Virus record (IMG/VR): IMGVR_UViG_3300012682_000002
Coordinates: 1 to 51,574 of that record
Direction: 5' to 3' (one strand)
Length of the DNA stretch: 51,574 nucleotides
Source of the DNA: a virus
Made by a program: the position numbers and the translations under genes. The stretch's first letter is position 1; each line of letters begins with the position of its first letter. Below are positions 2,270 to 41,367 of this stretch, one piece after another. The notes beneath the pieces are model-generated. The model was not told the origin of the DNA. It was given only the letters and a program-made list of their open reading frames with translations, and did not search any database.

Positions 2270-2701
2270 TTATCTCATCTTCCCAACCACTTCGACCATC
2301 AGGTTTGTGCCCGATCCTCCGCCAACCGTAATTGAGAAGTTGAGCACATCCCCCTCACTCAGGGTCACGTCGACGGGATCCGCCGCGACGTACTTTTGGT
2401 TCGCCGCAATGCTCGCCTCGAACGTCGCCGACAGATCCGAGAACGTGACGAGTCCGGCCGACGGCACCCCCCTCCGGACCCTCACGGTGGTGAGCGCCGT
2501 CGGCGCCGTCTTGCTCACGAGCTTGAGCCGCATCGCCGTCATGTTGAACGGCACCACGACGTAGAAATCGGCGAGATCCGCCGCCGCGGCCGGGATCGTG
2601 CCCGCCACGCCCATCGTGAGCGCGGCCTGGTGCGCCACCGTCTGCTCCGACGCGTCGGGAAACCCCACCGGCGAGAGGTTGAGGATCGCGGTTGTCGCCA
2701 T
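2270..2701 (-). CDS. Hypothetical protein (tail-fibre cluster)
   Basis: 143-aa ORF immediately downstream of the tail-fibre gene. Stop/start are adjacent at 2701/2702. Confidence 0.55.
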   Translation of the reverse strand: MATTAILNLSPVGFPDASEQTVAHQAALTMGVAGTIPAAAADLADFYVVVPFNMTAMRLKLVSKTAPTALTTVRVRRGVPSAGLVTFSDLSATFEASIAANQKYVAADPVDVTLSEGDVLNFSITVGGGSGTNLMVEVVGKMR

Positions 2702-4099
2702 CTAGCTCACCACCGCCCGGTACTGTGCCGCCGTGGGCGCGGTGGCGAATCTAATTGTGCATGTGTTCGTGCTCGTGCGCTCGACGATGGCGTTGACCGT
2801 CTCCCGATCGCCAGAGTTGCGGAACACCTGGACGGTGACATCGTAGCTGCCGATATTGTGCGTCAGCACAAAGGCCGTCGCCGACGCATCGCCCATGTCA
2901 AAGCCTTGCGGCGCGGCGCGGACACCGAGACTGGTGCGCGCGGTCGCCGCTGTTGTACCGGCCGTGCCGCCGTTGGCGATCGGCAGGGAGCCAGTCACTT
3001 TGGTCGTCAGATCAATCGACCCGGCGAGCATGGCGTTAGTGACGCCGAGCGCCTTCACCCGGAGGGCGTCGGCGTTGATCTCCAGGCTGGCGTTATCGGC
3101 GGCCACGTCGAGCGTGTCACCCGTCTTGGTGAGCGCGGCGCCCGCCGTAATCTGACCCGCGCCGCTGTACTGCGTAAAGACGAGCGCGGTCGTGTTGAGT
3201 GTGATCGGGTCATCGGTGGTGAGCACCCAGGCCGTATTGCCCTGGGACGTACCCTCACTCGCAAACGTATAGAGGCCCGCCGACACCTCGGCGGTGACGT
3301 CCGCATCGGTGGTGCGCGTCAGCGTCCACGGGGCGGCGCCGCTGCCCACGGCCGACACGGAGTAGAGGCCGTTGTTGGCGCCGGTCGCCTCATCCTTGAC
3401 GAGCAGCCGATCGCCCACGATCAGAGTGGCGCCATCCTGTGCGGCGAGCGCGGCATTCGCCGATGCCGTGAGCACGTTGCCAGACCGGGTATTGGCCGGC
3501 AACGCCGCCGTCGTGGCGGCGCGGACGCTGCCCTTGACGTCCAGCCCCTCGCGCACGGCCTGATCGACGTAGCGTTTATTGGCGCCGTCCGTGTCGGCGG
3601 TCGGGTCGGCGAGCGTGGTTAGCCGCTGCGAGTTGAGCGACACCACCGCCGTAGGCGCGGCCATCTGGTCGAGGCGTGAGGTCCGCACCTGCGTATCAAA
3701 GTCCGAGACGGTCGCGGCGAGCTGCGTGCCGGTGTGATTGGCGCGGGCGAGCGGATCGACGGCGAGTTTGTTCAACGCGATCGCGGCCGATGCGGAGATG
3801 TGCGCATTGGTGATGCCGAGCAAGGCAATACCGACAGTCGGGTCGGCGGCGGTACCGGCGATCGTGATCGTCGTGTTGGTTGCCGTCACGGACTGGACGC
3901 CGCTCGCGCTGGCGGTAGTTGTAATGACGTACGTCACGCTGCCAGCCCGGAATTTATAAAGGTTTGTCGTGGTGTTGAGCCAGAACAAGCCATCGGCCGG
4001 CGTGGCGGGGTCGGAGGCCAGCATGTGCAGTCGCACATTCTGGATCTCCAGGCTATTCATATCGACCGGAGACAGGAACGGAATCACGCCGGTTGCCAT
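2702..4099 (-). CDS. Tail fibre protein
   Basis: 465 aa. The N-terminus (MATGVIPFLSPVDMNSLEIQNVRLH..DGLFWLNTTTNLYKF), NKRYVDQAV and LPIANGGTAGTTAATARTSLGV are classic phage tail-fibre motifs. Confidence 0.8.
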   Translation of the reverse strand: MATGVIPFLSPVDMNSLEIQNVRLHMLASDPATPADGLFWLNTTTNLYKFRAGSVTYVITTTASASGVQSVTATNTTITIAGTAADPTVGIALLGITNAHISASAAIALNKLAVDPLARANHTGTQLAATVSDFDTQVRTSRLDQMAAPTAVVSLNSQRLTTLADPTADTDGANKRYVDQAVREGLDVKGSVRAATTAALPANTRSGNVLTASANAALAAQDGATLIVGDRLLVKDEATGANNGLYSVSAVGSGAAPWTLTRTTDADVTAEVSAGLYTFASEGTSQGNTAWVLTTDDPITLNTTALVFTQYSGAGQITAGAALTKTGDTLDVAADNASLEINADALRVKALGVTNAMLAGSIDLTTKVTGSLPIANGGTAGTTAATARTSLGVRAAPQGFDMGDASATAFVLTHNIGSYDVTVQVFRNSGDRETVNAIVERTSTNTCTIRFATAPTAAQYRAVVS

Positions 4100-30167: not shown

Positions 30168-30632
30168 TCATAGCACGGCCCCCCCCATCGTCACATTCTC
30201 ATAGCGGGCGCAGAAATCCTCCATACACCGGAACCCGGCGCCATCAAGGATTTGTACCTTTGCGTTACGGTGCCAACGGTAGAATCGCCGAATATTGTCA
30301 TCCATCACCCAATGCCAGGTAGCCCCGGCGGCGACGGCGTGATCCCAAACGAAGTTCCGCGCCGGCCCTGGCCCCATGCTCTTGCGGTCGCCGTGGTCAT
30401 CGCACGGATCGTATGTGCGTTGATAGGCCGGATCAAGGATGAGGATCTTTGTCGGCGCGATCACGGCGGCGTAGGCGTCATACTCTGCCGCCTCGATCAC
30501 AATTCGGTATTCGACACCCATCCGTTCGAGCGCCTTGCTCGTGAGGCGCGTATCGGCGCGACCTTTCGAGACGATGTAGATCGGGTGCTCAGGATGCACT
30601 ATAGGCCAACTCGGTATGTGCTCCCCGGTCAC
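30168..30632 (-). CDS. GT-A glycosyltransferase-like protein, N-terminal fragment ending just after a G8 tract
   Basis: ORF 30168-30716. IYIVSKGR and HWVMDDN (DxD-like). Start is uncertain (GTG 30632 or 30599; ATG 30716 would overlap the ParB-like gene by 128 nt). Stop lies 9 nt past C8 at 30179-30186. Confidence 0.5.
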   Translation of the reverse strand: MTGEHIPSWPIVHPEHPIYIVSKGRADTRLTSKALERMGVEYRIVIEAAEYDAYAAVIAPTKILILDPAYQRTYDPCDDHGDRKSMGPGPARNFVWDHAVAAGATWHWVMDDNIRRFYRWHRNAKVQILDGAGFRCMEDFCARYENVTMGGAVL

Positions 30633-31224
30633 GCGGCGGAAACCAGAGGCTTTTGGTTTCCGCCGTGATCTGTTGCCCAATGCACGCGGAAAAGGCATCC
30701 ACCGCCGCCGCGTCAAGGAATGAGATGGTAATCTGCCGCGCCGCGAGTTGAGGATTTACAAACTCCGGCATCCCGGCCCACTCCAATGCGAGATCCGAGC
30801 CATTCGCAGCCGGCGGAACAACCCCGGAACGCTCAGCCACGTCGACGAGTAAAGCCTGTAGCGCCTCACTCCCCGGATCGACATCACGCAGGAGCGCATC
30901 AAGGTCCGCCGCGTTCGCCGTCGCCATCGCCCCAATCGGATCGTAGGTCGCAAGAATCAAGTCAGCCTCACGCTCGTCTACATCAAGGATCAGGACCGGC
31001 ACCTCTTGATCCGACGTCAACTCGGCGCGCAAATGCCCGTCGATCAACATCAATCCAGCATCGGTCTGCCGCGCGAGGAGCGCACCGGCATAGCCGATCT
31101 CGGCGAGGAGGCCGCGCATCGCATCGCGTTGAGGCTTCGGATGCTTGCGCCAGTTCTTCGGCGACGGCGCGAGATCGCGGGCAGAAACACGGCGAAGCTC
31201 AACGATCCGATCACGCACATTCAT
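30589..31224 (-). CDS. ParB/Srx N-terminal-domain protein
   Basis: ORF 30589-31662 trimmed to ATG 31224, which follows GGAGG. LAPSPKNWRKHP and LMLIDGHLRAEL. The tail ...TKSLWFPP resembles the linker of ParB-methylase fusions. Confidence 0.7.
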   Translation of the reverse strand: MNVRDRIVELRRVSARDLAPSPKNWRKHPKPQRDAMRGLLAEIGYAGALLARQTDAGLMLIDGHLRAELTSDQEVPVLILDVDEREADLILATYDPIGAMATANAADLDALLRDVDPGSEALQALLVDVAERSGVVPPAANGSDLALEWAGMPEFVNPQLAARQITISFLDAAAVDAFSACIGQQITAETKSLWFPPRDRGAHTELAYSAS

Positions 31225-31394
31225 GGATCGGCCTCCGCCAGCATCACCCGCACCAGCTTGAGGTTCGCCGCAACCCCCGGCGCGTAGACCGCCGGCGACG
31301 CCGACGGCAGCGCCTTCAGGATGCCGGCGTAGGCTTCGGCGAGCATCTGGCAGGCGGTTGGCGGAGCAGAGGGCGCAGGGGCGTGCTGTTCCAC
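31221..31394 (-). CDS. Small hypothetical protein (57 aa)
   Basis: Hand translation from GTG 31394, which follows GGAGG: VEQHAPAPSAPPTACQMLAEAYAGILKAL... Its stop overlaps the ParB-like ATG (ATGA). Confidence 0.4.
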   Translation of the reverse strand: MEQHAPAPSAPPTACQMLAEAYAGILKALPSASPAVYAPGVAANLKLVRVMLAEADP

Positions 31395-31422
31395 GGGCGA
31401 GCCTCCTGGACGGTGGGGGACG

Positions 31423-31449
31423 CAAAGAAGCCGCCCACGGGAGGGCGGC
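31423..31449 (-). terminator. Terminator-like hairpin
   Basis: gccgccc (31430-31436) pairs with gggcggc (31443-31449). On the minus strand it is followed by TTCTTTG. Confidence 0.45.
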
Positions 31450-31517
31450 GAGAGGACGGAGTGACACTATGCAGATGCTAATCCAAAGTAGGCGGAAACC
31501 GGCCCCTCTGTCAAGGG

Positions 31518-32048
31518 CTAGATCGCCATCCGTGCTTTGCGGTTGCGGTAGTAGGCCGGGTAGAGGTGGGCGGCAATGCGCGCCACGCCCCATCGCTTCC
31601 AGGCGGCGACGGACCCCTCGTGCGCGGTGCAGTACGTCCGGCCACTCATATCCGTGCGCCATTCACAACTGAGCGCGGGGCAGATACGCATCCGCGCCGC
31701 AATCTCGGCGTTGTTGTAGCCACCGTAATAATGCAGCGCCACGGCGATGCGCTCGTTCCGTGGCAGTCGCGCCGCCTGCCACCAGATGTCCATTTGCCAG
31801 CAGGTGCGGTCGGGGATGCCGAGCCAGGAGCGTCCCTTACCGCGTGGTCTGCTCGACAGCTTCACCTGTGAGAGCGAGCGCCGCGACTTCAGACCCGCTT
31901 TGATCGCGTCCTCCGGTGTGCCGATACGCGGCGCAGGATAGGGATCGTGGTAGTAGAACGGGACATGATCGCGGACCGAATCAACAGACACGGTTGACCT
32001 CCTCACCACATACAGGCACACGCGCCGCGCCGGGTCGGGCGTGGTCAT
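31518..32048 (-). CDS. Sigma-70 region-4-like / LuxR-type HTH DNA-binding protein
   Basis: 176 aa. LPRNERIAVALHYYGGYNNAEIAARM resembles sigma region 4. Confidence 0.5.
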   Translation of the reverse strand: MTTPDPARRVCLYVVRRSTVSVDSVRDHVPFYYHDPYPAPRIGTPEDAIKAGLKSRRSLSQVKLSSRPRGKGRSWLGIPDRTCWQMDIWWQAARLPRNERIAVALHYYGGYNNAEIAARMRICPALSCEWRTDMSGRTYCTAHEGSVAAWKRWGVARIAAHLYPAYYRNRKARMAI

Positions 32049-32958: not shown

Positions 32959-34971
32959 TCACAGCGCCATCACCTGCTGGCTCAACCTGCCCTCGGCCAG
33001 CCGGCAATACTCTTCCTCTTGTTCGATGCCAATCGAACGGAAGCCGAGCGCGCGGGCAGCGATCAGCGTCGTGCCGCTGCCGGCGAAGGGGTCGATCACC
33101 GTGCCGCCCGGTTGGGTGATCATGGTGATCAAATAACGAAGTAGCTCCTGTGGCTTGACGGTTGGGTGATGGTTGCGTGCGCCACCCGTCCGCCCGGAGC
33201 CAGCGCGCGGCGAGTTGAGGCCGGCGCTGCCGTCCGTGCGGTCGGTCGCCTCGCCGCCGCTCTTGGCGGGGAGGGCGTCGAGGCCGTAGTCGCGTTCGGC
33301 GCGCGACGGCTTGGCGATGAAGAAAAATCTAGATGCAGTACCAGTGTCGCCATACGAGGGTAGTGTGCCTTGTGCGCCTAGTGGCCTGTATCGTCCATTA
33401 CGGCCACCCGCGCCCCGCCCCACTGTTTGCGGAGTCGTGCTCACCCCCGACTGCCGATCCAACTCTCCCGTTGGACATCCCTCCGCGTGGGGTTCGTCGC
33501 CGCAACAGGTAAAGACGGTGTTGGCGGGCCAGCGGCCAAGCTCGGTAACGCCAATCGCGCGTCTGCCTCCTGATCCCGATCCGTAAATCGCGCCCGTTTT
33601 CCCTGTGCCTTCTTGCAACTGGCGTAGTCCTTTCACCTCAATCCGACATTTATCAATATTGATCCCCCCCGTCCCCCACTTGGCGACGTTCGCGGCGATG
33701 GTGCCGTCGAGGGGCGCGCGGGCTAAAATGATTGGCTCCCAGTTAGATCGTTGATCGTGCGTGTTCTGTCCGGTAGTCGGCGTAGCATCGGCGAGAGCAG
33801 AAGATGCCCCCGCCGGGGCGCCGAAACACTCCGCCACAATGTTTGCAAGTACCGACGCCACCACGCGCGCGATGGGTCCGATAGCATCGTCGAGAACAGA
33901 ATGCCTCAGGGTGCCTAGCCAGTTCACCCACTCGCCGCTCGAACTGTTCTCCGCACTCCGAACATGGGACGCTTTGCCAGCGTGAAGGCACCTGTACACG
34001 GGCATGGTGTTGGGCGATATGAGCGGCGCGAGTAGTGAGTTCAAGGTTCTCAAGCCGGTTGTCATGTTTGACGCCGTTGATGTGGTGGACATTATCGTCG
34101 AATCCGAGAGGCCGTCCAAGATGTTGCTCCATGATGAAGCGATGCTCAAGGACGTTAAGACCACCTCCGGTAAGCTGGACGTATCCGTCTCTCCGTACTT
34201 TTCGCGTAATGCATTCATCGCGGCAGCGGCGAGAACAGAACCGCACGTAGCCTCGTTTCGCTCGGCTAGGCTTAACGGTAAACTCCACGGTGCAGGCAGA
34301 GCAGACGAAGCGAACCGCCATAGCAGCCCCCCCAAAGCATGATGAAGATACCGGACAAGCACACCATCAAATGGTACCACATTCAAAGGTTTCTGAGCCC
34401 ATAGGACTGGCTCCCAGCTGGGTTTTAACGCAGTCCCCCAGCCTTCCCATTGGCGGGCGAGGTCGGTGACTGGGGCGGTTACTTCACACTCGCGTTCTCC
34501 GTCGCCGTTGCCACCAATACCATCGCCATATAACCCGCCCTTGCCCATCGTCAAGCTATAGCCGGGTTGTCCCGCCTTACTGCCCACGATAGGCCGCTCT
34601 GCCCCCGCCGCCTGATCGATCGCCTTACTCACATCTAACGATTTCGGAAAACCTTGCGCGTGCATCCACGCCGCGATGCTATCTCGAATTTCGAAGCCCG
34701 CGTCCTCAATCGCCACGGCCATCCGGTGATACGTGCGTGCGCCACCAAAGGCGAGTAGATGCGCCCCCGGCTTGAGCACGCGTAGCACCTCGCGCCAGAA
34801 CGACGGATCGAAGGCGATGCCGGTGCCGTCCCACTTTTTTGACATGAATGAAAGCTCGTACGGCGGATCAGTAACACACGCATCCACCGACGCCGCCTCC
34901 ATGCCGGCCAACACGGCGCGGCTATCGCCGCAGAACAGCGTCACGCCCCCGCGCTCGAAATACGGTGTCAT
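32959..34971 (-). CDS. Beta-class DNA amino-methyltransferase (N6-adenine or N4-cytosine), interrupted by an HNH-ORF insertion
   Basis: ORF 32959-35034 with a likely ATG at 34971 after GGGGGAG. DPPY near the N-terminus. [16 protein letters not shown] and FAGSGTT near the C-terminus. The middle 675 nt is foreign. Confidence 0.8.
33743..34321 (-). CDS. HNH homing endonuclease
   Basis: 192 aa. [37 protein letters not shown] plus flanking CxxC pairs. Lower GC than its surroundings. Lies in a different frame from the host methyltransferase. Confidence 0.85.
33743..34417 (-). mobile_element. HNH-endonuclease insertion element inside the methyltransferase gene
   Basis: Bounded by the 10-nt direct repeat CTGGGAGCCA (34408-34417 and 33733-33742). 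Carries a diverged second copy of the WEPxxxAxxPL coding segment. Confidence 0.65.
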
Positions 34972-34994
34972 CGCTCCCCCTTCAGCCAGCTCTA

Positions 34995-35690
34995 TCACCC
35001 CGTCACCTCCACTGGTGGCGGGATCGCATGCCAATCAAGCGACGGCCACCGACAAAGCCGCGCGAGATCGCGCCGCTGACGGCGATCTCCAGTCACCGTC
35101 CAATACTTCACCTTTGGCGCACGTCGAACACGCCGGACATACTGCGCCGCGCCCCCTCGGAACGCCTCGCGAGTATGTTTACCAGGCACGATGTAGTCAT
35201 ACCGCGGCGTCTTCCGTTCCATGTCCGTCCATCCGGCATAGTGAAAGTTCGCCGCTCGGTAGACGTAGCCAACGTGTCCTCGCAAGGTGTCCGCGTAACT
35301 CACAATAATGCGCGGCGGGACGCGCCGGAGCGCGTGAGCAATAAACCACGTTTCACTATTGCGAGGCATCGAATCATGCACCCAAAGCCGATTAAGCTCG
35401 ATCACGATGTCCGGATTCGTCGGACACATACCGATCTGCAAATGGCGGCTAGCAGGGATTCCGAGCGTCAAGACGCCGACCACGCCCTCGGCACCAACAA
35501 GACCGAACGCATACTGCATGGGTGGTCTGCGGTGAAGGTAGTGGTAAGTAACGACGAGCGATGCCGCCTGCCGGTGATCGAGCGGTACCACCACCAAATC
35601 TGGTAGGCCCACCATTGCGTCCATGATGTCCCTCGAAAGCCAGTCTTCAAGCCGAATCTGTACCGCTTGCTTCTCGATCATAGCGATCAT
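34995..35690 (-). CDS. Mom-like GNAT-fold DNA-modification acyltransferase
   Basis: ORF 34995-35747 with a likely ATG at 35690. TYHYLHRRPP, IELNRLWV and IVSYADTLRGHVGYVYRAANFHYAG parallel phage Mu Mom (WHYS.., LELKRL, SFSDPEHGHNGGIYKAANF), recalled from memory. Confidence 0.6.
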   Translation of the reverse strand: MIAMIEKQAVQIRLEDWLSRDIMDAMVGLPDLVVVPLDHRQAASLVVTYHYLHRRPPMQYAFGLVGAEGVVGVLTLGIPASRHLQIGMCPTNPDIVIELNRLWVHDSMPRNSETWFIAHALRRVPPRIIVSYADTLRGHVGYVYRAANFHYAGWTDMERKTPRYDYIVPGKHTREAFRGGAAQYVRRVRRAPKVKYWTVTGDRRQRRDLARLCRWPSLDWHAIPPPVEVTG

Positions 35691-35762
35691 GTCTCTACCC
35701 CCTCTGCCTGCTGCCCGCATCCATCCCCGCCAGCACGTCGAGCACATGGCCGACCTTGATCG

Positions 35763-36071
35763 TCATCGCCGCTCCCCCTTCAGCGCCGCCTCAATCGCGT
35801 CCCAATCGCCCGGCCGCCGCACCGCCGCATCGATCCCCGGCACCGCGCCAAGCGCATCCAGCCAGGCGCGCTGGTCGGGCCGCAGCCGGCCGCGCATCGT
35901 CTTCAGCTCCCAGGCCAGGGCGCGGCCGTCGCGCACGGCGAAAATATCGGGGAAGCCAGCCGCCGTCGCGCGCCGTGAATCGGGGATGGAATAAACCAAC
36001 CACGAGTGAAGACGAGCGAACTCAATCACCGCCACCTGGAACGCTCGCTCGCTCAGCGCGCAATCGAGCAC
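35763..36071 (-). CDS. VRR-NUC domain nuclease
   Basis: ERAFQVAVIEFARLHSWLVYSIPDSR...GFPDIFAVRDGRALAWELK fits the PD-(D/E)xK VRR-NUC pattern. Start uncertain (GTG 36071; ORF-track ATG at 36215). Confidence 0.7.
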   Translation of the reverse strand: MLDCALSERAFQVAVIEFARLHSWLVYSIPDSRRATAAGFPDIFAVRDGRALAWELKTMRGRLRPDQRAWLDALGAVPGIDAAVRRPGDWDAIEAALKGERR

Positions 36072-36618
36072 GCTCCTCGCGTCGACAGGGCCGACAGTAG
36101 ACGACCCTGTTTGTCCCCTTTCGCCTGTAGGCGTTCTCTGCTGTCGCTGGGTGGCCACGTTTGCACACTCCTCTGCGCGCAAGCAGCACCATCGGCGCCA
36201 CGCCACGCCACACATTCACTCGATGGGGCACAGGTTCGAGATGATCCGGGTTGCAACACATCCGATTTCGGCAGAGATGGTCGAGTTCCATGCCTTCGGG
36301 GATTGGTCCGCGCAAGAGGGTCCACGCAAACCGATGAGCCGTCGTAGAACCAACTCCCGCCCCCGCGTAAAACCCGCCGTAGCCGGTCCCGTACTTGCCG
36401 CCGGACCACTCCCAACAAGACTCAGTTATCCGCACCTTCGGCCAGAAGCGATCGCTTGGCGGGATCGGCGTGATGACAGGATGTGTGCCACGTCCATTGT
36501 GGCCGTGGATGAATCGAGGCTGCCGCCGAGCACGGATCGGCACGCGACCACCGCACCCGCAGGCACACAACGAGATGTCTTCGGGCATGGGAAAGCCGCC
36601 TCCGCAGATCGCACTCAT
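36022..36618 (-). CDS. HNH endonuclease
   Basis: ORF 36022-36717 trimmed to ATG 36618 (ATGA overlap). CWEWSG..GYGGF..AHRFAW..LDHLCRNRMCCNPDHLEPV. Confidence 0.85.
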   Translation of the reverse strand: MSAICGGGFPMPEDISLCACGCGGRVPIRARRQPRFIHGHNGRGTHPVITPIPPSDRFWPKVRITESCWEWSGGKYGTGYGGFYAGAGVGSTTAHRFAWTLLRGPIPEGMELDHLCRNRMCCNPDHLEPVPHRVNVWRGVAPMVLLARRGVCKRGHPATAENAYRRKGTNRVVYCRPCRREERARLRAERASVPGGGD

Positions 36619-36806
36619 CCCCTCCCCCTCCCCCACGCCTGTCGCGCCGCGGCCTCGCTGGCGTAGAACGTGACGCCCGCCATCGATTCCCAGATCGCGT
36701 ACGGCTGAGCCACGCAAACGGCGCAGCGGGTGAGCGTGCGGTCGCCGATCGGACGGGCGCCGGGGCGGGTCGCCAGCACGGTGCGGGGGTGGGTGGCGGC
36801 GGTCAT
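36615..36806 (-). CDS. Hypothetical protein
   Basis: ORF 36615-36881 trimmed to ATG 36806 (ATGA overlap). 63 aa. Confidence 0.45.
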   Translation of the reverse strand: MTAATHPRTVLATRPGARPIGDRTLTRCAVCVAQPYAIWESMAGVTFYASEAAARQAWGRGRG

Positions 36807-37450
36807 TGCTTCACCCCCTGCCGCTTCCACATATCGACGTGGCGGCGTTGCCACTTGTACAAAGCCAGCGCCGCGCGCCACGCCCGCTGGTCGCCGGCGT
36901 CGTCATCGAACTCGGTGACATAAAGTTCACCCGGCCGACGGCTCGGCATCTGCACGATCAGCCGCACGTCACAGCCGATGGCGTGCGCCTCCAGCGCGGC
37001 GAGTTGATAGGCGGCGGTTTGGAGCCGATACGATTCGCCCACGCTGTTGCTCGTCTTGAGGTCCACCAACGCCCGCCGGCCGTCTTTGAGGTCGGCGATT
37101 AAGTCGAGCGTACCGGCGTAACCGTGCTTGACCGACCAGACGAACTGCTCGACGGCGACGACCTCGGCGACGTTCTTCTCGAACCAAGCGCTGTAGGCGT
37201 GAATGAATGGCGCGATATCGAGGGCAACGGGGCCGCCGGCCGCGTCCCGGTTGATCTCCTCGCACACCCCATGCACCCGTGTACCTAAGCCGGTCGCTTC
37301 CCGGCCGATGCGCCGCGATTCCTCCAGGCCAACCTTGTGCCGCCATGCCTCCAGGCCAGGGGCGGCGATGACGTTGAGGATGGTGCTGACGCGCGGGTAG
37401 ACGATCCCGTCTACCTCATAGCCGCGCGGGGTGAGTTTTACGTTGCTCAT
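36803..37450 (-). CDS. PD-(D/E)xK exonuclease (Cas4/RecB-like)
   Basis: 215 aa. GTRVHG..., YAGTLDLIADLKDGRRALVDLKTS and QTAAYQLA fit the D...D/ExK...QxxxY nuclease motifs. Confidence 0.65.
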   Translation of the reverse strand: MSNVKLTPRGYEVDGIVYPRVSTILNVIAAPGLEAWRHKVGLEESRRIGREATGLGTRVHGVCEEINRDAAGGPVALDIAPFIHAYSAWFEKNVAEVVAVEQFVWSVKHGYAGTLDLIADLKDGRRALVDLKTSNSVGESYRLQTAAYQLAALEAHAIGCDVRLIVQMPSRRPGELYVTEFDDDAGDQRAWRAALALYKWQRRHVDMWKRQGVKQ

Positions 37451-37881
37451 GCTTCATCCTCAGCGACCCAGCACGGCCTGTTCATGTCGTTGTCGAACTC
37501 GACCATCAAATCGGCAACGCGGACGGCGATCATCGGCTCGCGATGATCCGTGCATGACCAGACGGGGCGATCAAGCGTCAGCAGGTCCGGCGTCCATCCC
37601 TCATCGCCCCAAGTACAGGTCGGACAGAGGGCGTCGGCTGGCCGCTCGGAGAGGTAGCCGTACTGTTCGGCGCGGAGGTGCCAGCGTTCGACGGCACGAC
37701 GCAACTTGGCTGTGTCGCCGGCGGCTTCCGCTTCGCGGCCGATCGCCTCGGCTTTGTCGATGCGCTCGGCGAGATCGGCGAGCGCGACGGCGCGTTCCTT
37801 GGCCCCTGTTGGCGGAATGATGCCGCTGACGAGGTAGTCACCGGCGCCACGGGTGGGGCGGGTGGAGGTGTAGGTGGTCAT
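37447..37881 (-). CDS. Hypothetical protein
   Basis: ORF 37447-37980 trimmed to ATG 37881 (TGATG overlap). 144 aa. Confidence 0.5.
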   Translation of the reverse strand: MTTYTSTRPTRGAGDYLVSGIIPPTGAKERAVALADLAERIDKAEAIGREAEAAGDTAKLRRAVERWHLRAEQYGYLSERPADALCPTCTWGDEGWTPDLLTLDRPVWSCTDHREPMIAVRVADLMVEFDNDMNRPCWVAEDEA

Positions 37882-38393
37882 CACGAAAGCTTTCCCTGAT
37901 CGACGGCATCGCGGATGGTGCTTTCGGACGGCATGGTTCGAAACGCGGACTTCACCGGCCGGCGGAACCCGTCCGACCACTCCTGATACCGGCGCTGGGA
38001 CTTGAAGAGGTTTTGCTTTCGCACCTCATCCATCATGTCGAGCCGAGGATCGTCAACCTGGCCCACGCTCGAAACCATCCCCTCGCCGATCGGCACAACG
38101 GCGTCGAGGATGCCCAACTCTTCGAACGCCGCTTGCCCGCTGGCAAGCTTCTCCATCTGGCGCTTGCCATCCGCAACTACGCGCGCATGGGCATGCCGCA
38201 TCGCCGTCTCTGCCGCCGCTTCTTCGAGCGTCGTTTGTGCGTATGTCGACGCGCGTATCTCCTTCATCACCGCGTCGCGCGCGGCTCGCATCGCCGACGC
38301 TTCATCGGCAACGTTGCCGGCCGCCTCTAAGCGGGCGATCTCCGCGCGATACGCCGTTTCCGCGGTGCTATTCCACTCGTTCATCGGGTCCAC
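37881..38393 (-). CDS. Hypothetical protein
   Basis: 170-aa helical ORF. Confidence 0.5.
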   Translation of the reverse strand: MDPMNEWNSTAETAYRAEIARLEAAGNVADEASAMRAARDAVMKEIRASTYAQTTLEEAAAETAMRHAHARVVADGKRQMEKLASGQAAFEELGILDAVVPIGEGMVSSVGQVDDPRLDMMDEVRKQNLFKSQRRYQEWSDGFRRPVKSAFRTMPSESTIRDAVDQGKLS

Positions 38394-39187
38394 TCCTTCG
38401 CGAGACTACCCAGGTTCTCCGCCGCTTCGTTCAACAACGCTGCCGTGAGCGGCTCATCCAGGAAACTACGGTCATCCGAGAACAGGGCGATCGCCCGCTC
38501 CCGTCGCGGCGCATCGGCGAGCAGATCGAGCGCCACCTTCACCGAGCGACTAAGCCGATCGCTGATGATGGTGATGTCTTCGTTCCGCCTGCGCGTCCGT
38601 TCGCCGAGTTCGGCCAACGCACCGACAAGCGTCAGTCGCTCCTCGACCACTTGATCGGCGAGGTCGGGCGCCTCGGCGCGAAGGCGCGCCATCCGCGCGT
38701 CGGTTGACTCGGCGGCGATCTTGCGGGTGCGGGCTTCGGCGTAGGCGTCGCTGAGCGGCAGACTGCCGGCCATCACTGCATCGGTGAGGTCAGGGGCATA
38801 GGTGAGGACGGTGGATGCATGAACCACACGGGAGCGATTCATACCCGCTGTCTTCGCGGCTTCTGCCTGAGAGGTGTTATTTTTTAACACCACCTGCGCC
38901 ACCACCATCGCCAGTTGCCCCTTGCTCATGTGCCGCCGGTTGACGTTGGACGAGAGGATGTAGGCGACCGGATCGTGATCGCCCAACTGCTCGAACGCCG
39001 GCTCGACGCCGGCCAGTTCGCAGGCACGGAGACGGTTGCGCCCGTCGATCAACTGGCCGTCCGTGTCGATCACGATTGGGTGGATCAAGCCGTTCGCCTT
39101 GATGTCGTCCGCCAGGTCGTGCAGCTCTTCGTCAGGCACCATCGGAAACAATGCCGCCATTGGATGTACGCGATACTCGCTTGTCAT
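38381..39187 (-). CDS. ParB N-terminal-domain DNA-binding protein
   Basis: 268 aa. HPMAALFPMVPDEELHDLADDIKANGLIHPIVI..LIDGRNRLRAC, then an HTH-like segment. RBS AGGAAAGGGGAG. Confidence 0.75.
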   Translation of the reverse strand: MTSEYRVHPMAALFPMVPDEELHDLADDIKANGLIHPIVIDTDGQLIDGRNRLRACELAGVEPAFEQLGDHDPVAYILSSNVNRRHMSKGQLAMVVAQVVLKNNTSQAEAAKTAGMNRSRVVHASTVLTYAPDLTDAVMAGSLPLSDAYAEARTRKIAAESTDARMARLRAEAPDLADQVVEERLTLVGALAELGERTRRRNEDITIISDRLSRSVKVALDLLADAPRRERAIALFSDDRSFLDEPLTAALLNEAAENLGSLAKEWTR

Positions 39188-39212
39188 ACACTCCCCTTTC
39201 CTATGCGCTTAT

Positions 39213-39284
39213 CGAAGTTCGCTCGCGCCTCGCCCCCGCGCCCCGTAAGGGGCGCAGGGGGGCGTGGGCGCGTGCGAACTGAAG
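39213..39284. repeat. Large GC-rich imperfect palindrome
   Basis: The arms pair as gttcgc/gcgaac, cgcgcc/ggcgcg, cgccccc/gggggcg and gcgcccc/ggggcgc around the loop gtaa (39245-39248). Confidence 0.7.
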
Positions 39285-39306
39285 CATTGCCGCTAGGTTG
39301 GTGGTT

Positions 39307-39466
39307 GAAGTACGTCGTGAGGTGGGTCGTCGCGGCGATTCGTCCGCCGCAACGTACTTCACGTACTTCACAAGCTTGTAAGTGAAGTACGTTATTTGAG
39401 GTCGATGGTTGGACTATTGCGTAACACATATTCTTGAAGTACGTGCTTGAAGTACGTGAAGTACGT
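39307..39466. promoter_or_regulatory. Iteron array: 7 copies of GAAGTACGT (candidate origin or parS-like site)
   Basis: Forward copies at 39307-15, 39384-92, 39436-44, 39449-57 and 39458-66. Reverse copies at 39352-60 and 39361-69. The region is AT-richer than the genome. Confidence 0.7.
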
Positions 39467-41367
39467 CAGGCATCATCCATCTCCCCTAGCCGTAGAAATG
39501 TGTACTTTCCGTCCTTCCGATCGACCTTGATCGCGCCGCTCTTCCGACCGGCGGTGATGCCGCGCTCGGCCGTTGTGCGCGGCAGTTGGTACTCCGCCAT
39601 CACCGCGTCCCGCAACTCCCCGTAGGTCATCACGCCGCGCTCGTCGAGCAGTTCGCAGGCGTGCATTAACGCTGCTGTCTCCGCTCCATAGGCTGCCGCT
39701 GTTGAGCCGATCACCGTCATCACCACCGGCTCGCCTTTGTTCGCATCTCCCTCCAACTTGTAGATTACATCGGGTGCCCTCATGCCGCCGCGTATCTTCT
39801 CGACATGGACACGCACGAGCGGATCGGTGCTGTTGCCTATCAGTTGCACATGGTTGTCGGCATTCGCCTTGAACTCGCCGCTGCCGCGCAAACGATTGCC
39901 CGGCGTTACCGTCCCTTCGCGTGGTGCTTTGTTGAGATGCTGGAGCATAATCCAGGTGACGCCCGTCTTAAGACGGATCGTACGTAGCATCTTGTGGAAG
40001 GCGGCAACGTCCCGCGAACTGTTCTCATCGCCGTCAAAGAAGCGGATCAGGCTGTCGGTGACGATCAGGTTGATGCCCCGCTCTTCGATCACGCGCGTTA
40101 GCCAGGCGGCATCCTGTGGCCGCGCGAGCCGTATCTCCGCGTCGATTACGAAGTCGACCGGGATGTCTTCATCGGCATCGATGCCCATGCCCTCGCAGAG
40201 CGCCCGTAGCCGCCGCTGCGCCTCTTGGATGCCGTTCTCCTCGTCGATGTAGAGGGCGCGGATAGGCGCCGTCTCACGGCCAAGGAACGGCATCCCACGG
40301 GCGGCATGGAGCACCAGCGCTAGCACCCACCAGGACTTGCCGAGGCCAGATTCTCCCGACAGGACGACGTAGCGGCCGCGCGGGATCGTGTCTGCTAGCA
40401 CCCATTCGATCGGCGGCAGGTCGAGGGCGCGCAGCTCGCGCGCCGTCCAGATCGTTCGGGCAGCGGTCGGCTCCGCCGCCGGCGCATCGTCGTCTTCGAG
40501 GAACGCTGTCGCTTCCCGTGTTGGTGCATACCGCCGATAGGCGCTGTTCAGGGCGGCGACGGCTTCCGATTCATCGAGCGGCGGCTTCGCGTTCGCTGCC
40601 GCCTCCCGGATCAGTCGCGCCGCCATCTCATAGGGCACGTCCGCGCCGCGCAGTTTGGCGGCGAGCCGGAAGACCTGATCGTTGCGCTGGCCCTCCGGCA
40701 CGCCGTCGAGGATGGCGCCGGTGTCGAGCCGCGAGAACGGTAATGGCTCTTTGGCTCCGTCCGTGCGCGGCAGCCAGGTGGGTACGTCCGCCAGCTCGCA
40801 CTCGTCCGGGCCATATCCGATCTCCCATGCGTAGCGCCGCCCCGAATGATGGCGCGAGGGCGGCGCGACGGCGTAGCCGCCCTCGCCGCGTACGTCCACG
40901 CCCGGCGCAATCTTGCCGGCGCTGTTGCCGATATAACCGCCGGGGTGACGGAGATAGGCATGCCAGCCGCCACCGCCGGTGAGGACGCGCCACGTCTCGG
41001 CGAGCGCGCCGTGCTCCGCCTCGAGGCGGTGGATCGACTCCTCGCCACCCTTGTCCGGGTCCACGTCGATCAGGGCCAGGCCGGAGACCGAGCCGGTGCG
41101 GATGCCGATATTCGCGCCCGGATAGGCGGACCACCACCGGCGGATCGTGGCCGTGTCCGCCGTGGCGTCGAGCACGCCGCGTGGCACGAGCGAGCCGACC
41201 GGATGCTTGGCGATCTGGGTGCAGGCGCCGTCGCCGCACTCGCATTCGCCGTCCGCGTTCGGCGCCCACACCGGGAAGACGCGTAGACCGAGCGCCGCAT
41301 AGCGCAGCGCCGCACTCCCCGTTTCGGATGGCTGGGTATCGTTCATAGGTCGGCTTGCCACAGACAC
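39466..41367 (-). CDS. Bifunctional primase-polymerase (PrimPol) fused to a RepA/DnaB-like P-loop helicase
   Basis: 633 aa. LRVFPVW..., IDVDPDKGG, GGGWHAYL and VDVRGEGGYAVAPPS form the PrimPol domain. GESGLGKSW is Walker A and LYIDEE is Walker B. Confidence 0.85.
   Translation of the reverse strand: MSVASRPMNDTQPSETGSAALRYAALGLRVFPVWAPNADGECECGDGACTQIAKHPVGSLVPRGVLDATADTATIRRWWSAYPGANIGIRTGSVSGLALIDVDPDKGGEESIHRLEAEHGALAETWRVLTGGGGWHAYLRHPGGYIGNSAGKIAPGVDVRGEGGYAVAPPSRHHSGRRYAWEIGYGPDECELADVPTWLPRTDGAKEPLPFSRLDTGAILDGVPEGQRNDQVFRLAAKLRGADVPYEMAARLIREAAANAKPPLDESEAVAALNSAYRRYAPTREATAFLEDDDAPAAEPTAARTIWTARELRALDLPPIEWVLADTIPRGRYVVLSGESGLGKSWWVLALVLHAARGMPFLGRETAPIRALYIDEENGIQEAQRRLRALCEGMGIDADEDIPVDFVIDAEIRLARPQDAAWLTRVIEERGINLIVTDSLIRFFDGDENSSRDVAAFHKMLRTIRLKTGVTWIMLQHLNKAPREGTVTPGNRLRGSGEFKANADNHVQLIGNSTDPLVRVHVEKIRGGMRAPDVIYKLEGDANKGEPVVMTVIGSTAAAYGAETAALMHACELLDERGVMTYGELRDAVMAEYQLPRTTAERGITAGRKSGAIKVDRKDGKYTFLRLGEMDDA

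Follow-up and report, generated by a model that had tools for sequence, protein, structure and literature searches.

Homing endonucleases are, to our knowledge, thought to survive within genes only by residing in self-splicing introns, by residing in inteins or by splitting the host gene. Free-standing homing endonucleases take the last of these routes and leave their hosts as 'genes in pieces', as does mobE in nrdA of the Aeromonas phage Aeh1. A further arrangement is already known from publications of 2023 and 2025 under the name 'ShiLan domain', a hidden, out-of-frame HNH gene within the methylase genes of mycobacteriophages (Gosselin et al. 2023, PMC9957025; Arsenault, Gosselin and Gogarten 2025, PMC11855218). 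The later of these reports (PMC11855218) describes approximately ten mycobacteriophage cases, proposes that the HNH gene starts at a GTG codon 18 nt into the insert, notes that the insert often ends in Asn and likens an 11-residue duplication to the exon and guide-sequence similarity of introns; it also finds that the ShiLan HNH matches I-HmuI by Foldseek and that mycobacteriophages can do without the methylase. Non-canonical homing endonucleases, out of frame or antisense, have also been described within inteins (bioRxiv 10.1101/2025.01.02.630785).

We report the analysis of a hidden HNH gene in a stretch of viral DNA of 51,574 nucleotides (IMG/VR record IMGVR_UViG_3300012682_000002, positions 1 to 51,574), which we refer to as the window. 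The contig is phage-like and, unlike those of the ShiLan cases, is not a known mycobacteriophage. The features of the locus are listed below, where P0030 is an uninterrupted methyltransferase homologue of 435 aa.

32959..34971, minus strand: complete DNA methyltransferase ORF including the insertion, 670 aa from ATG 34971
34417..34971, minus strand: N-terminal methyltransferase part, DPPY onward, 61% identical to residues 5-176 of P0030; pLDDT mostly 85-98
34408..34417, minus strand: CTGGGAGCCA, the upstream one of two 10-nt direct repeats, explained by the W-E-P codons of the duplicated peptide
33742..34416, minus strand: ShiLan-type insertion of 675 nt (225 codons), which begins with strand copy 1 and ends in TAAC
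34384..34416, minus strand: strand copy 1, the first 11 codons of the insertion, modelled by AlphaFold as coil (pLDDT ~45-62)
34322..34383, minus strand: 62-nt linker before the HNH start; a run of seven G (34327-34333), which resembles a Shine-Dalgarno site, lies 5 nt upstream of the ATG
33743..34321, minus strand: gene for a 192-aa HNH endonuclease, closed by TAA, in the +2 frame relative to the methylase
33733..33742, minus strand: CTGGGAGCCA again, the downstream one of the two repeats, immediately following the stop codon of the HNH
33709..33741, minus strand: strand copy 2, the copy of the host gene, contiguous with the downstream methylase and modelled by AlphaFold as a beta-strand (414-418, pLDDT 88-96), a preference that may be biased, as uninterrupted homologues lie on this copy in the alignment
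32959..33708, minus strand: C-terminal methyltransferase part with the target-recognition region, the SAM-binding motif FAGSGTT and the stop codon, 47% identical to residues 165-424 of P0030

An initial annotation of this DNA had placed the methyltransferase at 32959-35034. That open frame is real, and it is the maximal ORF on the minus strand (691 aa from the most upstream TTG, 35034), but the true start is probably ATG 34971, which has GGGGGAG upstream of it and gives a protein of 670 aa that is 100% identical to an independently called protein, P0001. The ORF matches the Pfam family N6_N4_Mtase (E 1.3e-31), the matching stretch in its C-terminal part being 616-681. DPPY lies near the N-terminus, at residues 35-38, in columns that are invariant in the homologue alignment, and FAGSGTT lies near the C-terminus, at approximately residue 629 of the 670-aa form. 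This order of motifs, IV (DPPY), target recognition domain (TRD) and I (FxGxG), in combination with a fold like that of CcrM and M.RsrI, identifies the protein as a beta-class amino-methyltransferase. Its AlphaFold model resembles the beta-class enzymes CcrM, TTHA0409, M.BceJIV, M1.HpyAVI and M.RsrI, which, with CcrM as entry 6pbd and together with M.MboIIA, are also its best Foldseek matches. The methylase shows 70-74% identity to mycobacteriophage methylases by blastn and 43-50% amino-acid identity to 30 long-form, insert-bearing homologues. P0030 aligns with residues 15-197 and 408-664 of the 670-aa protein, skipping the insert, and its one KPGWEPIVLARK segment (165-179) matches both strand copies and both junctions, so that clean excision in silico, which the initial annotation had put forward as a check, does restore a contiguous enzyme; the insertion-free junction of this empty allele reads ...AAACCCAGC|TGGGAGCCAATCATT....

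The nuclease ORF matches the Pfam family HNH_3 (PF13392) with an E-value of 1.2e-9 and 38.0 bits, against a gathering cut-off of 24.8, and it retains all eight residues that are invariant in the HNH alignment (H79, H80, N82, D87, N88, N92, H101 and H105). Furthermore, it carries three zinc-finger-like CxxC...CxxxC motifs. The catalytic core is common to the I-HmuI type of HNH_3 enzyme; I-HmuI, however, is encoded by a group I intron, whereas the HNH of the window carries the three repeats and has no close solved relative by sequence, a search of PDB sequences having returned nothing meaningful. By tblastn, it is 44% identical to ORFs lying within the ShiLan and Bipolar methylases (E ~4e-29 to 5e-29). 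Identity to methylase-hidden HNH ORFs as a whole, namely those of Bipolar, ShiLan, Cr-LKS3 and 50 viral contigs, is 44-53%, and it is 44-50% to the HNHs within the long methylase coding sequences of ShiLan, Bipolar, OwlsT2W, Filuzino, Pollywog and MISSy, as well as those of Murica, Mantra, Starcevich, Totinger and the cyanophage Cr-LKS3. The +2 offset of the HNH is identical in the window and in two of its relatives (L001 and L002). For comparison we chose 54 related loci by HNH similarity alone (at least 41% identical).

The borders of the insertion are well defined. The HNH stop codon TAA (33743-33745) adjoins the downstream repeat as TAAC|TGGGAGCC, and the end of the insertion reads ...ATC TAA C|TGGGAGCCA (33742-33745). 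Strand copies 1 and 2 are diverged, 11-residue duplicates of the WEPxxxAxxPL strand, and the two copies of the 10-nt repeat are spaced by 675 nt, that is, by 225 codons. The alignment of the flanks from the 54 loci and the window reveals a conserved site of insertion in the strand ALKPx|xEPxxxARKP, and the window has the ShiLan-type site, ...GWGTALKPx | xEPxxxARKPLxGTVA. The GC content of the insert is 0.53-0.58, against 0.60-0.70 in the flanks (150-nt windows). Across the relatives both strand copies are conserved and co-vary at the level of the protein but not of the DNA: they share codons at a rate of 34%, as compared with 34% for unrelated copies. A simple 'tolerated loop' model does not demand such conservation of both copies. 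The 10-nt repeat was considered as a signal for recombination, target duplication or bypass and was rejected in each of these roles, as it is a by-product of the shared W-E-P codons.

All that the initial annotation said of the sequence itself is borne out, beginning with its main claim, the invasion of a methylase by an out-of-frame HNH gene, with which the ORF positions, the Pfam matches to N6_N4_Mtase and HNH_3 and the +2 offset agree. It was also right that the HNH stop abuts the downstream repeat, that a diverged WEPxxxAxxPL segment is present twice (34384-34416 and 33709-33741) and that the insert is the AT-richer part. The direct repeat that it described at the borders does occur at both positions, but, given the background rate of codon sharing, is of no significance in itself.

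Judged by its sequence features, all of those that define the type being present, the element of the window is a divergent ShiLan-type member. It shares with the element in ShiLan gp65 and Bipolar gp76 the methylase family, the insertion site, an HNH in the third frame and a methylase frame that is free of stops, as well as the TAAC end, the 11-residue duplication, the lack of an intron or intein signature and a homologous HNH (44%). It differs in belonging to a distant lineage, with an HNH identity to ShiLan of approximately 44% and a methylase identity to insert-bearing methylases of 43-50%, and in the length of its insert, which is 225 codons rather than 202 because of a third zinc-finger repeat. 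The HNH start also differs, being an ATG behind a G-rich Shine-Dalgarno site in the window as opposed to the GTG proposed for ShiLan. Inteins with out-of-frame nucleases are likewise in-frame insertions in phage genes, with a homing nuclease nested out of frame and an open host frame, but in these a Hint splicing domain removes the junk peptide, whereas the insert of the window is without a splicing domain. Genes in pieces resemble the window in placing a free-standing HNH or GIY-YIG gene within a conserved enzyme gene, with neither intron nor intein; there, however, the host consists of two separately translated ORFs, each with its own stop or start, whereas in the window no start codon follows the HNH stop and the methylase frame runs through the nuclease gene as one uninterrupted ORF.

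None of the 225 codons of the insert is a stop in the methylase frame of the window, and the same is true across the HNH of all 54 related loci, low-GC relatives (0.32-0.45) included. The remaining, third frame of the same loci contains 2-25 stops; in distant relatives of the HNH that are free-standing, the corresponding frame contains 2-18. We back-translated each HNH protein using the codon preferences of its methylase flanks and counted stops in the methylase frame. For the window such recodings held a mean of 5.9 stops and none of 2000 was open, so the initial annotation's remark that the frame has no stop across the insert describes something far beyond chance; over all loci 2.3-15.5 stops were expected in each, with a probability of zero stops of at most 0.09 everywhere. 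These expectations, set against 54 open frames in 54 loci, show that the openness has been selected. In one clade, 25 mutations that are synonymous in the HNH would make a stop in the methylase frame and not one of these is seen. The variable columns of the same clade fall 49/21/73 at HNH codon positions 1/2/3; the substitutions thus track the codon phase of the HNH, which marks it as the primary constrained frame, and the methylase-frame reading of the insert evolves almost freely except for the avoidance of stops. In the window, Leu and Val codons that precede codons starting with A are CTT, CTC and GTT, and not CTG or GTG. The insertion is therefore most likely translated.

Signals for the separate expression of the HNH are also present. 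Of 51 loci, 40 have a Shine-Dalgarno-like site 3-11 nt upstream of the HNH start. Among 43 unique upstream regions, 20 contain a sigma-70-like pair, as compared with 1.8 among shuffled sequences, and in 17 of the 20 the distance from the end of the -10 box to the ATG is exactly 33 nt. At the position of the linker the arrangement in relatives is TTGACA-N17-TATAAT-N26-GGAGG-N7-ATG, such that the promoter and Shine-Dalgarno signals of the HNH are written within the methylase frame. A promoter scan found no canonical sigma-70 pair upstream of the HNH of the window. An apparent 'conserved amphipathic helix', (E)RDIILSNLIRLEARLW, in the methylase-frame insert was rejected, as these residues are what the -10 box, Shine-Dalgarno site and ATG of the HNH encode in that frame.

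We consider it likely that the locus holds a divergent, ShiLan-type hidden HNH gene in a beta-class methylase gene that is translated through, with the nuclease made separately and serving in homing. A homing-type HNH gene would have settled, in the +2 frame, at the ALKPx|xEPxxxARKP strand of a phage methylase. Rather than removing the element, ribosomes would read through it to give a 670-aa, presumably active enzyme with a 225-residue 'wrong-frame' insert, which would loop out of the fold at a point flanked by the beta6 region and the beta7 strand, stop codons being purged from the methylase frame by selection. The nuclease itself would be made from ATG 34321, behind its G-rich Shine-Dalgarno site, and in many relatives also from its own sigma-70 promoter inside the methylase frame. 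Presumably it cuts insertion-free methylase alleles at the strand-coding site, upon which repair would copy the element in. The element would bring along its own spare of the strand that it interrupts (copy 1); in the model, the fold contains the host's copy 2. The initial annotation saw a captured homing endonuclease here, which is apt as regards an out-of-frame HNH within a methylase, though this is no one-off but a conserved, widespread and published element. Among the three outcomes that it offered, a tolerated insertion of ~225 residues is favoured, given 54 open frames out of 54 and the intact methylase motifs, over a dead gene or a gene in pieces; the gene is not split. It had also held that homologues with an insert of the same size, at the same site and in the same frame would speak against its reading. 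Such homologues were in fact found, but the hidden HNH is present in them too, at an unchanged frame offset, and for that reason they do not overturn it.

Several other explanations of the insert have to be weighed against this one. An unrecognised self-splicing or otherwise processed RNA element, with an open frame that is incidental, is highly improbable, even though HNH genes are common passengers of introns and the 11-codon duplication, which opens the insert at its 5' end and recurs past its 3' end, recalls exon and guide similarity (PMC11855218). Rfam searches found nothing relevant, either in the whole window at the gathering threshold or in 33500-34650 at E<=10, and the 675-nt insert folds no better than its shuffles (z-score -0.84). 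The HNH ORF leaves only 62 nt of the insert free, and RNAalifold detected no conserved pairs in the linker from copy 1 to the ATG across 25 loci, in agreement with the initial annotation, which saw no room here for a group I core. Nor was an exon U with an intron G found, since the insert ends in ...TAAC and borders within a perfect repeat cannot yield both a 5' exon U and an intron-final G. The synonymous codons of the two copies agree only at chance, which leaves no nucleotide-level pairing constraint, and an intron needs no stop-free host frame, whereas 54 of 54 frames are open where 2-15 stops are expected. Removal at the level of the protein, by a non-canonical intein-like or proteolytic step after translation, would account for the selected open frame and for an insert that lies between conserved residues and is often Asn-terminal (PMC11855218), but we hold it to be quite unlikely. 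A Pfam search of the 225-aa methylase-frame insert at E<=10 gave no match and no Hint domain, as befits the initial annotation's statement that this is not an intein, and AlphaFold models the insert as low-confidence helices, not as a Hint fold. The first residue of the insert and the +1 residue are both Trp and not Cys, Ser or Thr, and the terminal residue is set by the overlapping HNH stop, with TAA-C giving AAC (Asn), TGA-C giving GAC (Asp) and TAG-C giving AGC (Ser). A methylase-frame sequence almost free to evolve, apart from its avoidance of stops, speaks against this reading too.

It is very unlikely, moreover, that the methyltransferase is dead or dispensable, with only the HNH of consequence and the open frame of the window the luck of a GC-rich genome. 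Long alternative-frame ORFs are common in GC-rich DNA, and the window has a GC content of 58-65%. The methylase is dispensable in mycobacteriophages (PMC11855218), and two of the relatives are damaged, L013 by a methylase-frame stop shortly before the HNH and L030 by a frameshift in the N-terminal part of the methylase, so an intact methylase is not always maintained. Luck, however, is at odds with the lack of a single open recoding of the window, with its choice of Leu and Val codons before A and with the open frames of low-GC relatives, while the methylase motifs are all intact and well modelled. Ribosome hopping from copy 1 to copy 2, skipping the nuclease gene by a translational bypass of the T4 gene 60 type, is barely conceivable. 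The codons TGG GAG CCA are identical at both borders in the window, and the bypass cassette of T4 gene 60 is itself linked to a mobile homing-endonuclease element, but the gap would be 675 nt instead of the 50 nt known from T4, the supposed take-off site is not followed by a stop, the codon identity of the copies is at background across relatives, and bypassing needs no open frame over the gap.

Readthrough of a ShiLan-type element would mean that the insert is left in, that the host frame is kept open through the nuclease gene and that a junk peptide is looped out. The window extends the published description by a divergent, three-zinc-finger lineage, and the present analysis adds selection on the openness of the host frame, the occurrence of the arrangement far outside the mycobacteriophages, an internal ribosome-binding site in most members with an internal promoter in approximately half of the unique upstream regions, and protein-level constraint on both copies of the duplicated strand; these additions make the mechanism directly testable. 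More tentatively, the element may be an engineered 'splice-free' cassette, in which a spare beta-strand might serve as a folding placeholder or alternative strand and the nuclease signals are placed in the host frame. If this doubtful idea were true, homing endonucleases would have, in addition to introns and inteins, a third general way of residing in an essential fold without destroying it, one that is apparently widespread in phages of many hosts. The elements also provide a clean natural system of long dual-coding sequence (~500-580 nt). In practice, genes of this type are annotated as a single long 'DNA methylase', which overlooks the nuclease.

As gauged by HNH similarity, the hidden-HNH element is widespread and common far beyond the mycobacteriophages. 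The 54 loci span HNH GC contents of 0.32-0.67 and include a cyanophage and a betaproteobacterial MAG, and a scan of genome contigs gave only 4 loci. In another clade of the family, HNHs that are 91-99% identical lie in methylases whose flanks are only 30-70% identical, a disparity that shows the element to be mobile among relatives, in agreement with PMC9957025. The window's own lineage has no close relative that would show recent movement, the nearest HNH being approximately 51-53% identical. The only exact match to the locus is a 5.7-kb Logan contig (SRR6263248). One further locus, L063, is a case related to the inteins with out-of-frame homing endonucleases.

The initial annotation, which described a methylase gene invaded by an out-of-frame HNH ORF, was real and correctly read, and the ORF listing, the Pfam matches and a reading of the sequence bear it out:

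32959-35034 (-), long methylase ORF, 691 aa (ORF listing; Pfam N6_N4_Mtase, 1.3e-31)
33743-34321 (-), nested HNH ORF in a frame other than the methylase's, 192 aa (ORF listing; Pfam HNH_3, 1.2e-9)
34408-34417 and 33733-33742 (-), direct repeat CTGGGAGCCA, spacing 675 nt (sequence reading)

The sequence also confirms the proposed borders, in that both carry the repeat and the TAA stop of the HNH immediately precedes the downstream copy (TAAC, then TGGGAGCC). The WEPxxxAxxPL segment is duplicated as described, in two diverged 11-residue versions, of which copy 1 opens the insert and copy 2 follows it; exactly 62 nt separate copy 1 from the HNH ATG, where about 62 had been estimated, and the insert has a higher AT content than its flanks, again as noted. 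Translation of the methylase likely starts at ATG 34971, with GGGGGAG upstream, giving a 670-aa form with 100% identity to a metagenomic protein from an independent gene call. Joining the two halves had been proposed as a check, and both of them align to P0030, an uninterrupted homologue of 435 aa whose one KPGWEPIVLARK segment corresponds to copy 1 and copy 2 alike, so that in-silico excision restores a normal, contiguous enzyme.

The element belongs to a recently described class and is therefore not new in kind. The best HNH relatives in tblastn searches (42–50% identity) lie inside long annotated 'DNA methylase' CDSs, namely those of the mycobacteriophages Bipolar, ShiLan, OwlsT2W, Filuzino, Pollywog, MISSy, Murica, Mantra, Starcevich and Totinger, and of Cylindrospermopsis phage Cr-LKS3; two of these phages, Bipolar and Cr-LKS3, match the window in the +2 offset of the HNH and have an unbroken methylase CDS. 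Gosselin et al. 2023 (PMC9957025) described the 'ShiLan domain', which Arsenault, Gosselin and Gogarten 2025 (PMC11855218) re-interpreted as an HNH hidden out of frame; both studies are purely computational and cover about ten mycobacteriophages. All of its published defining features are found in the window: the methylase family and insertion site are the same, and in both cases the host frame is stop-free, the third frame encodes the HNH, TAAC closes the insertion, the first 11 insert residues recur after the insert and there is no intron or intein signature. The window is a divergent new member of this class, with three zinc fingers and 225 codons, and lies on a phage-like contig. The third zinc-finger-like repeat, CxxC...FCSRRC (33746-33850, minus strand, residues about 158-192), is absent from the Bipolar and Cr-LKS3 HNHs, is shared with the low-GC relative L006 and accounts for the greater length of the window insert (225 against about 192-202 codons).

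With the entire ORF as query, a protein search recovered about 30 methylases from metagenomes, 590-700 aa long and with both motif copies (93-97% query coverage), together with many uninterrupted methylases of 420-470 aa. So that the methylase ORF played no part in the selection, loci were also retrieved from viral contigs and genomes through HNH similarity alone, and almost all of the 54 loci with ≥41% HNH identity to the window (about 43 non-identical; HNH GC 0.32-0.67) are flanked by both methylase halves. One, L070:1593-3794, lies on a 43-kb groundwater contig of a Betaproteobacteria MAG (JACQGO010000135.1) and has a 733-codon open frame with HEIIIKARKPL as copy 1 and LEYIAVARKPL as copy 2; the element is thus not confined to actinobacteriophages or cyanophages. 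Further insertions besides the hidden HNH occur in the methylases P0073 (942 aa; a LAGLIDADG_3 domain, PF14528) and P0079 (1148 aa) and at loci L021 (1110-codon ORF), L036, L044 and L053, which recalls reports of multiple insertion sites in the mycobacteriophage methylase family.

The methylase frame across the HNH is stop-free in 54/54 loci, whereas the third frame holds 2-25 stops and distant free-standing HNH relatives hold 2-18 in the frame corresponding to the methylase's. Recoding each HNH, its protein sequence unchanged, with codon usage taken from the adjoining methylase segments led to an expected 2.3-15.5 stops per locus and to P(no stop) ≤0.09 throughout; the window, where the frame across the insert had been correctly noted as unbroken, had a mean of 5.9 stops and 0/2000 open recodings, so this openness is beyond chance. 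Shuffling synonymous codons within each HNH created on average about 0.2-4.6 stops per locus, and the share of the 2000 shuffles left without a stop ran from zero to 81%, exceeding half in only a few loci. Among nine aligned members of one clade, variable columns (49/21/73) track the HNH codon phase, the commonest substitutions are silent in the HNH and change the methylase frame, and 0 of the 25 possible HNH-silent mutations that create a methylase-frame stop were observed. This pattern indicates that constraint acts primarily on the HNH frame and that the methylase frame is selected chiefly for staying open, for which the simplest reason would be ribosomes translating through the insert.

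Excision of the insert from RNA or protein was rejected. For an intron, Rfam gave no matches, the RNA stability of the insert is unremarkable (z = -0.84) and no conserved base pairs were found in the linker upstream of the HNH. For an intein, no Pfam or Hint domain was found in the 225-aa methylase-frame insert, and its final residue (Asn in the window, Asp or Ser elsewhere) is explained by the methylase frame reading the overlapping HNH stop (TAA-C, TGA-C, TAG-C); the earlier exclusion of a group I core and of an intein thus holds. Translational bypass was rejected because the strand copies share codons only at background frequency (52/152 within loci against 34% between loci), which leaves no constraint from nucleotide-level pairing, conversion or a landing site. 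At the protein level, by contrast, the copies co-vary within loci, with 3.26 against 2.20 identities over 7 variable positions (27 fully distinct pairs; exceeded in 0/10000 shuffles), and synonymous sites are saturated. Both copies look constrained as protein, which is beyond what a simple loop-out model requires; one possibility is that copy 1 serves as a placeholder or alternative strand.

We consider it probable that the methylase is translated unspliced straight across the nuclease gene and that the HNH would be made separately through internal initiation. In 40/51 loci the HNH start is preceded, at 3-11 nt, by a Shine-Dalgarno-like site (mostly TGGAGG), and a sigma-70-type pair occurs in 20/43 unique upstream regions against 1.8 in shuffles, several being perfect consensus (TTGACA-N16/17-TATAAT); in 17 of these 20 the distance from the end of the -10 box to the ATG is exactly 33 nt. 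What appeared to be a conserved helix of the insert was rejected as such, since these signals encode its residues and it is a translated HNH expression cassette.

HNH expression signals as read in the methylase frame
-35 box: KP-L-T/D (CCG TTG ACa)
-10 box: D-I-I (GAT ATA ATx)
Shine-Dalgarno site: L-E-A (cTG GAG Gcc)
ATG start: L-W (tTA TGG)

In Bipolar, a GTG at the conserved HNH N-terminus has GGAGG 4 nt upstream, which speaks against the published suggestion of 'no RBS, leaderless'; these signals add to the published descriptions of ShiLan-type elements. In the window a G7 run lies 5 nt upstream of the HNH ATG, and scanning detected no canonical sigma-70 promoter for this ORF.

HNH proteins sharing 91-99% identity are found in methylases with flank identities of just 30-70%, a pattern consistent with homing, as inferred earlier in PMC9957025. 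In this clade copy 1 (LETVTFASKP) moves unchanged with the element, and copy 2 differs from one host gene to another.

An AlphaFold2 model of the window methylase (105 sequences; mean pLDDT 70, pTM 0.64) has a confident core, which Foldseek groups with the beta-class enzymes CcrM, TTHA0409, M.BceJIV, M1.HpyAVI, M.MboIIA and M.RsrI, and an insert of six helices (pLDDT 42-78). Copy 2 forms strand 414-418 (pLDDT 88-96) and copy 1 a low-confidence coil, a choice that may be biased since the alignment placed uninterrupted homologues onto copy 2.

Several loci depart from the common arrangement. A single stop (ERDIIL*NLIRLEARLW) interrupts the methylase frame of L013 (~2460-2475) shortly before the HNH signals, the N-terminal part of the methylase is frameshifted in L030 (1700-2560, GC 0.32), and L006 (2477-2926) has a stop inside the HNH with the methylase frame open, and looks like a decaying nuclease. 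At L008:1817-3541 (IMGVR_UViG_3300045996_001800) an out-of-frame HNH, 44% identical to the window's, occupies another site in a related N6_N4 methylase, following GQGFPKGLN and replacing the variable stretch between the GFPKSL and ALKP motifs of other members; there is no duplicated strand motif, and here too the host frame stays open. L063:903-3191 (IMGVR_UViG_3300045988_149849) is a terminase large-subunit ORF (Terminase_6N, 8e-25) with an intein-like insertion that starts CFTGDTLV and ends VYCLTVPSCGFFRLANGMLVSNC (Intein_splicing 3.7e-6, under the Pfam cut-off); a strong HNH_3 ORF (2435-3052, 1.5e-17) lies out of frame within it, and the intein frame is open across the HNH. L066 and L072 (Desulfovibrio MAG QKDT01000307.1) have a similar terminase arrangement.

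Other genes lie near the window methylase:

30589-31662 (-), 357-aa ORF about 1.3 kb downstream, weak match to phage DNA methyltransferase family phrog_498 (5e-7)
34995-35747 (-), Mom-like DNA modification protein directly upstream (phrog_1384, 3.3e-38; PF25680 Mom from the Logan gene call)
35763-36215 (-), VRR-NUC-like endonuclease or resolvase
36803-37450 (-), exonuclease
38381-39187 (-), ParB-like protein
39466-41367 (-), primase/polymerase-helicase

The Mom-like gene places two different DNA-modification functions side by side in this phage, and the 357-aa ORF may be a second methylase. The upstream replication and recombination module (35763-41367, minus strand) fits the early region of a phage or prophage.
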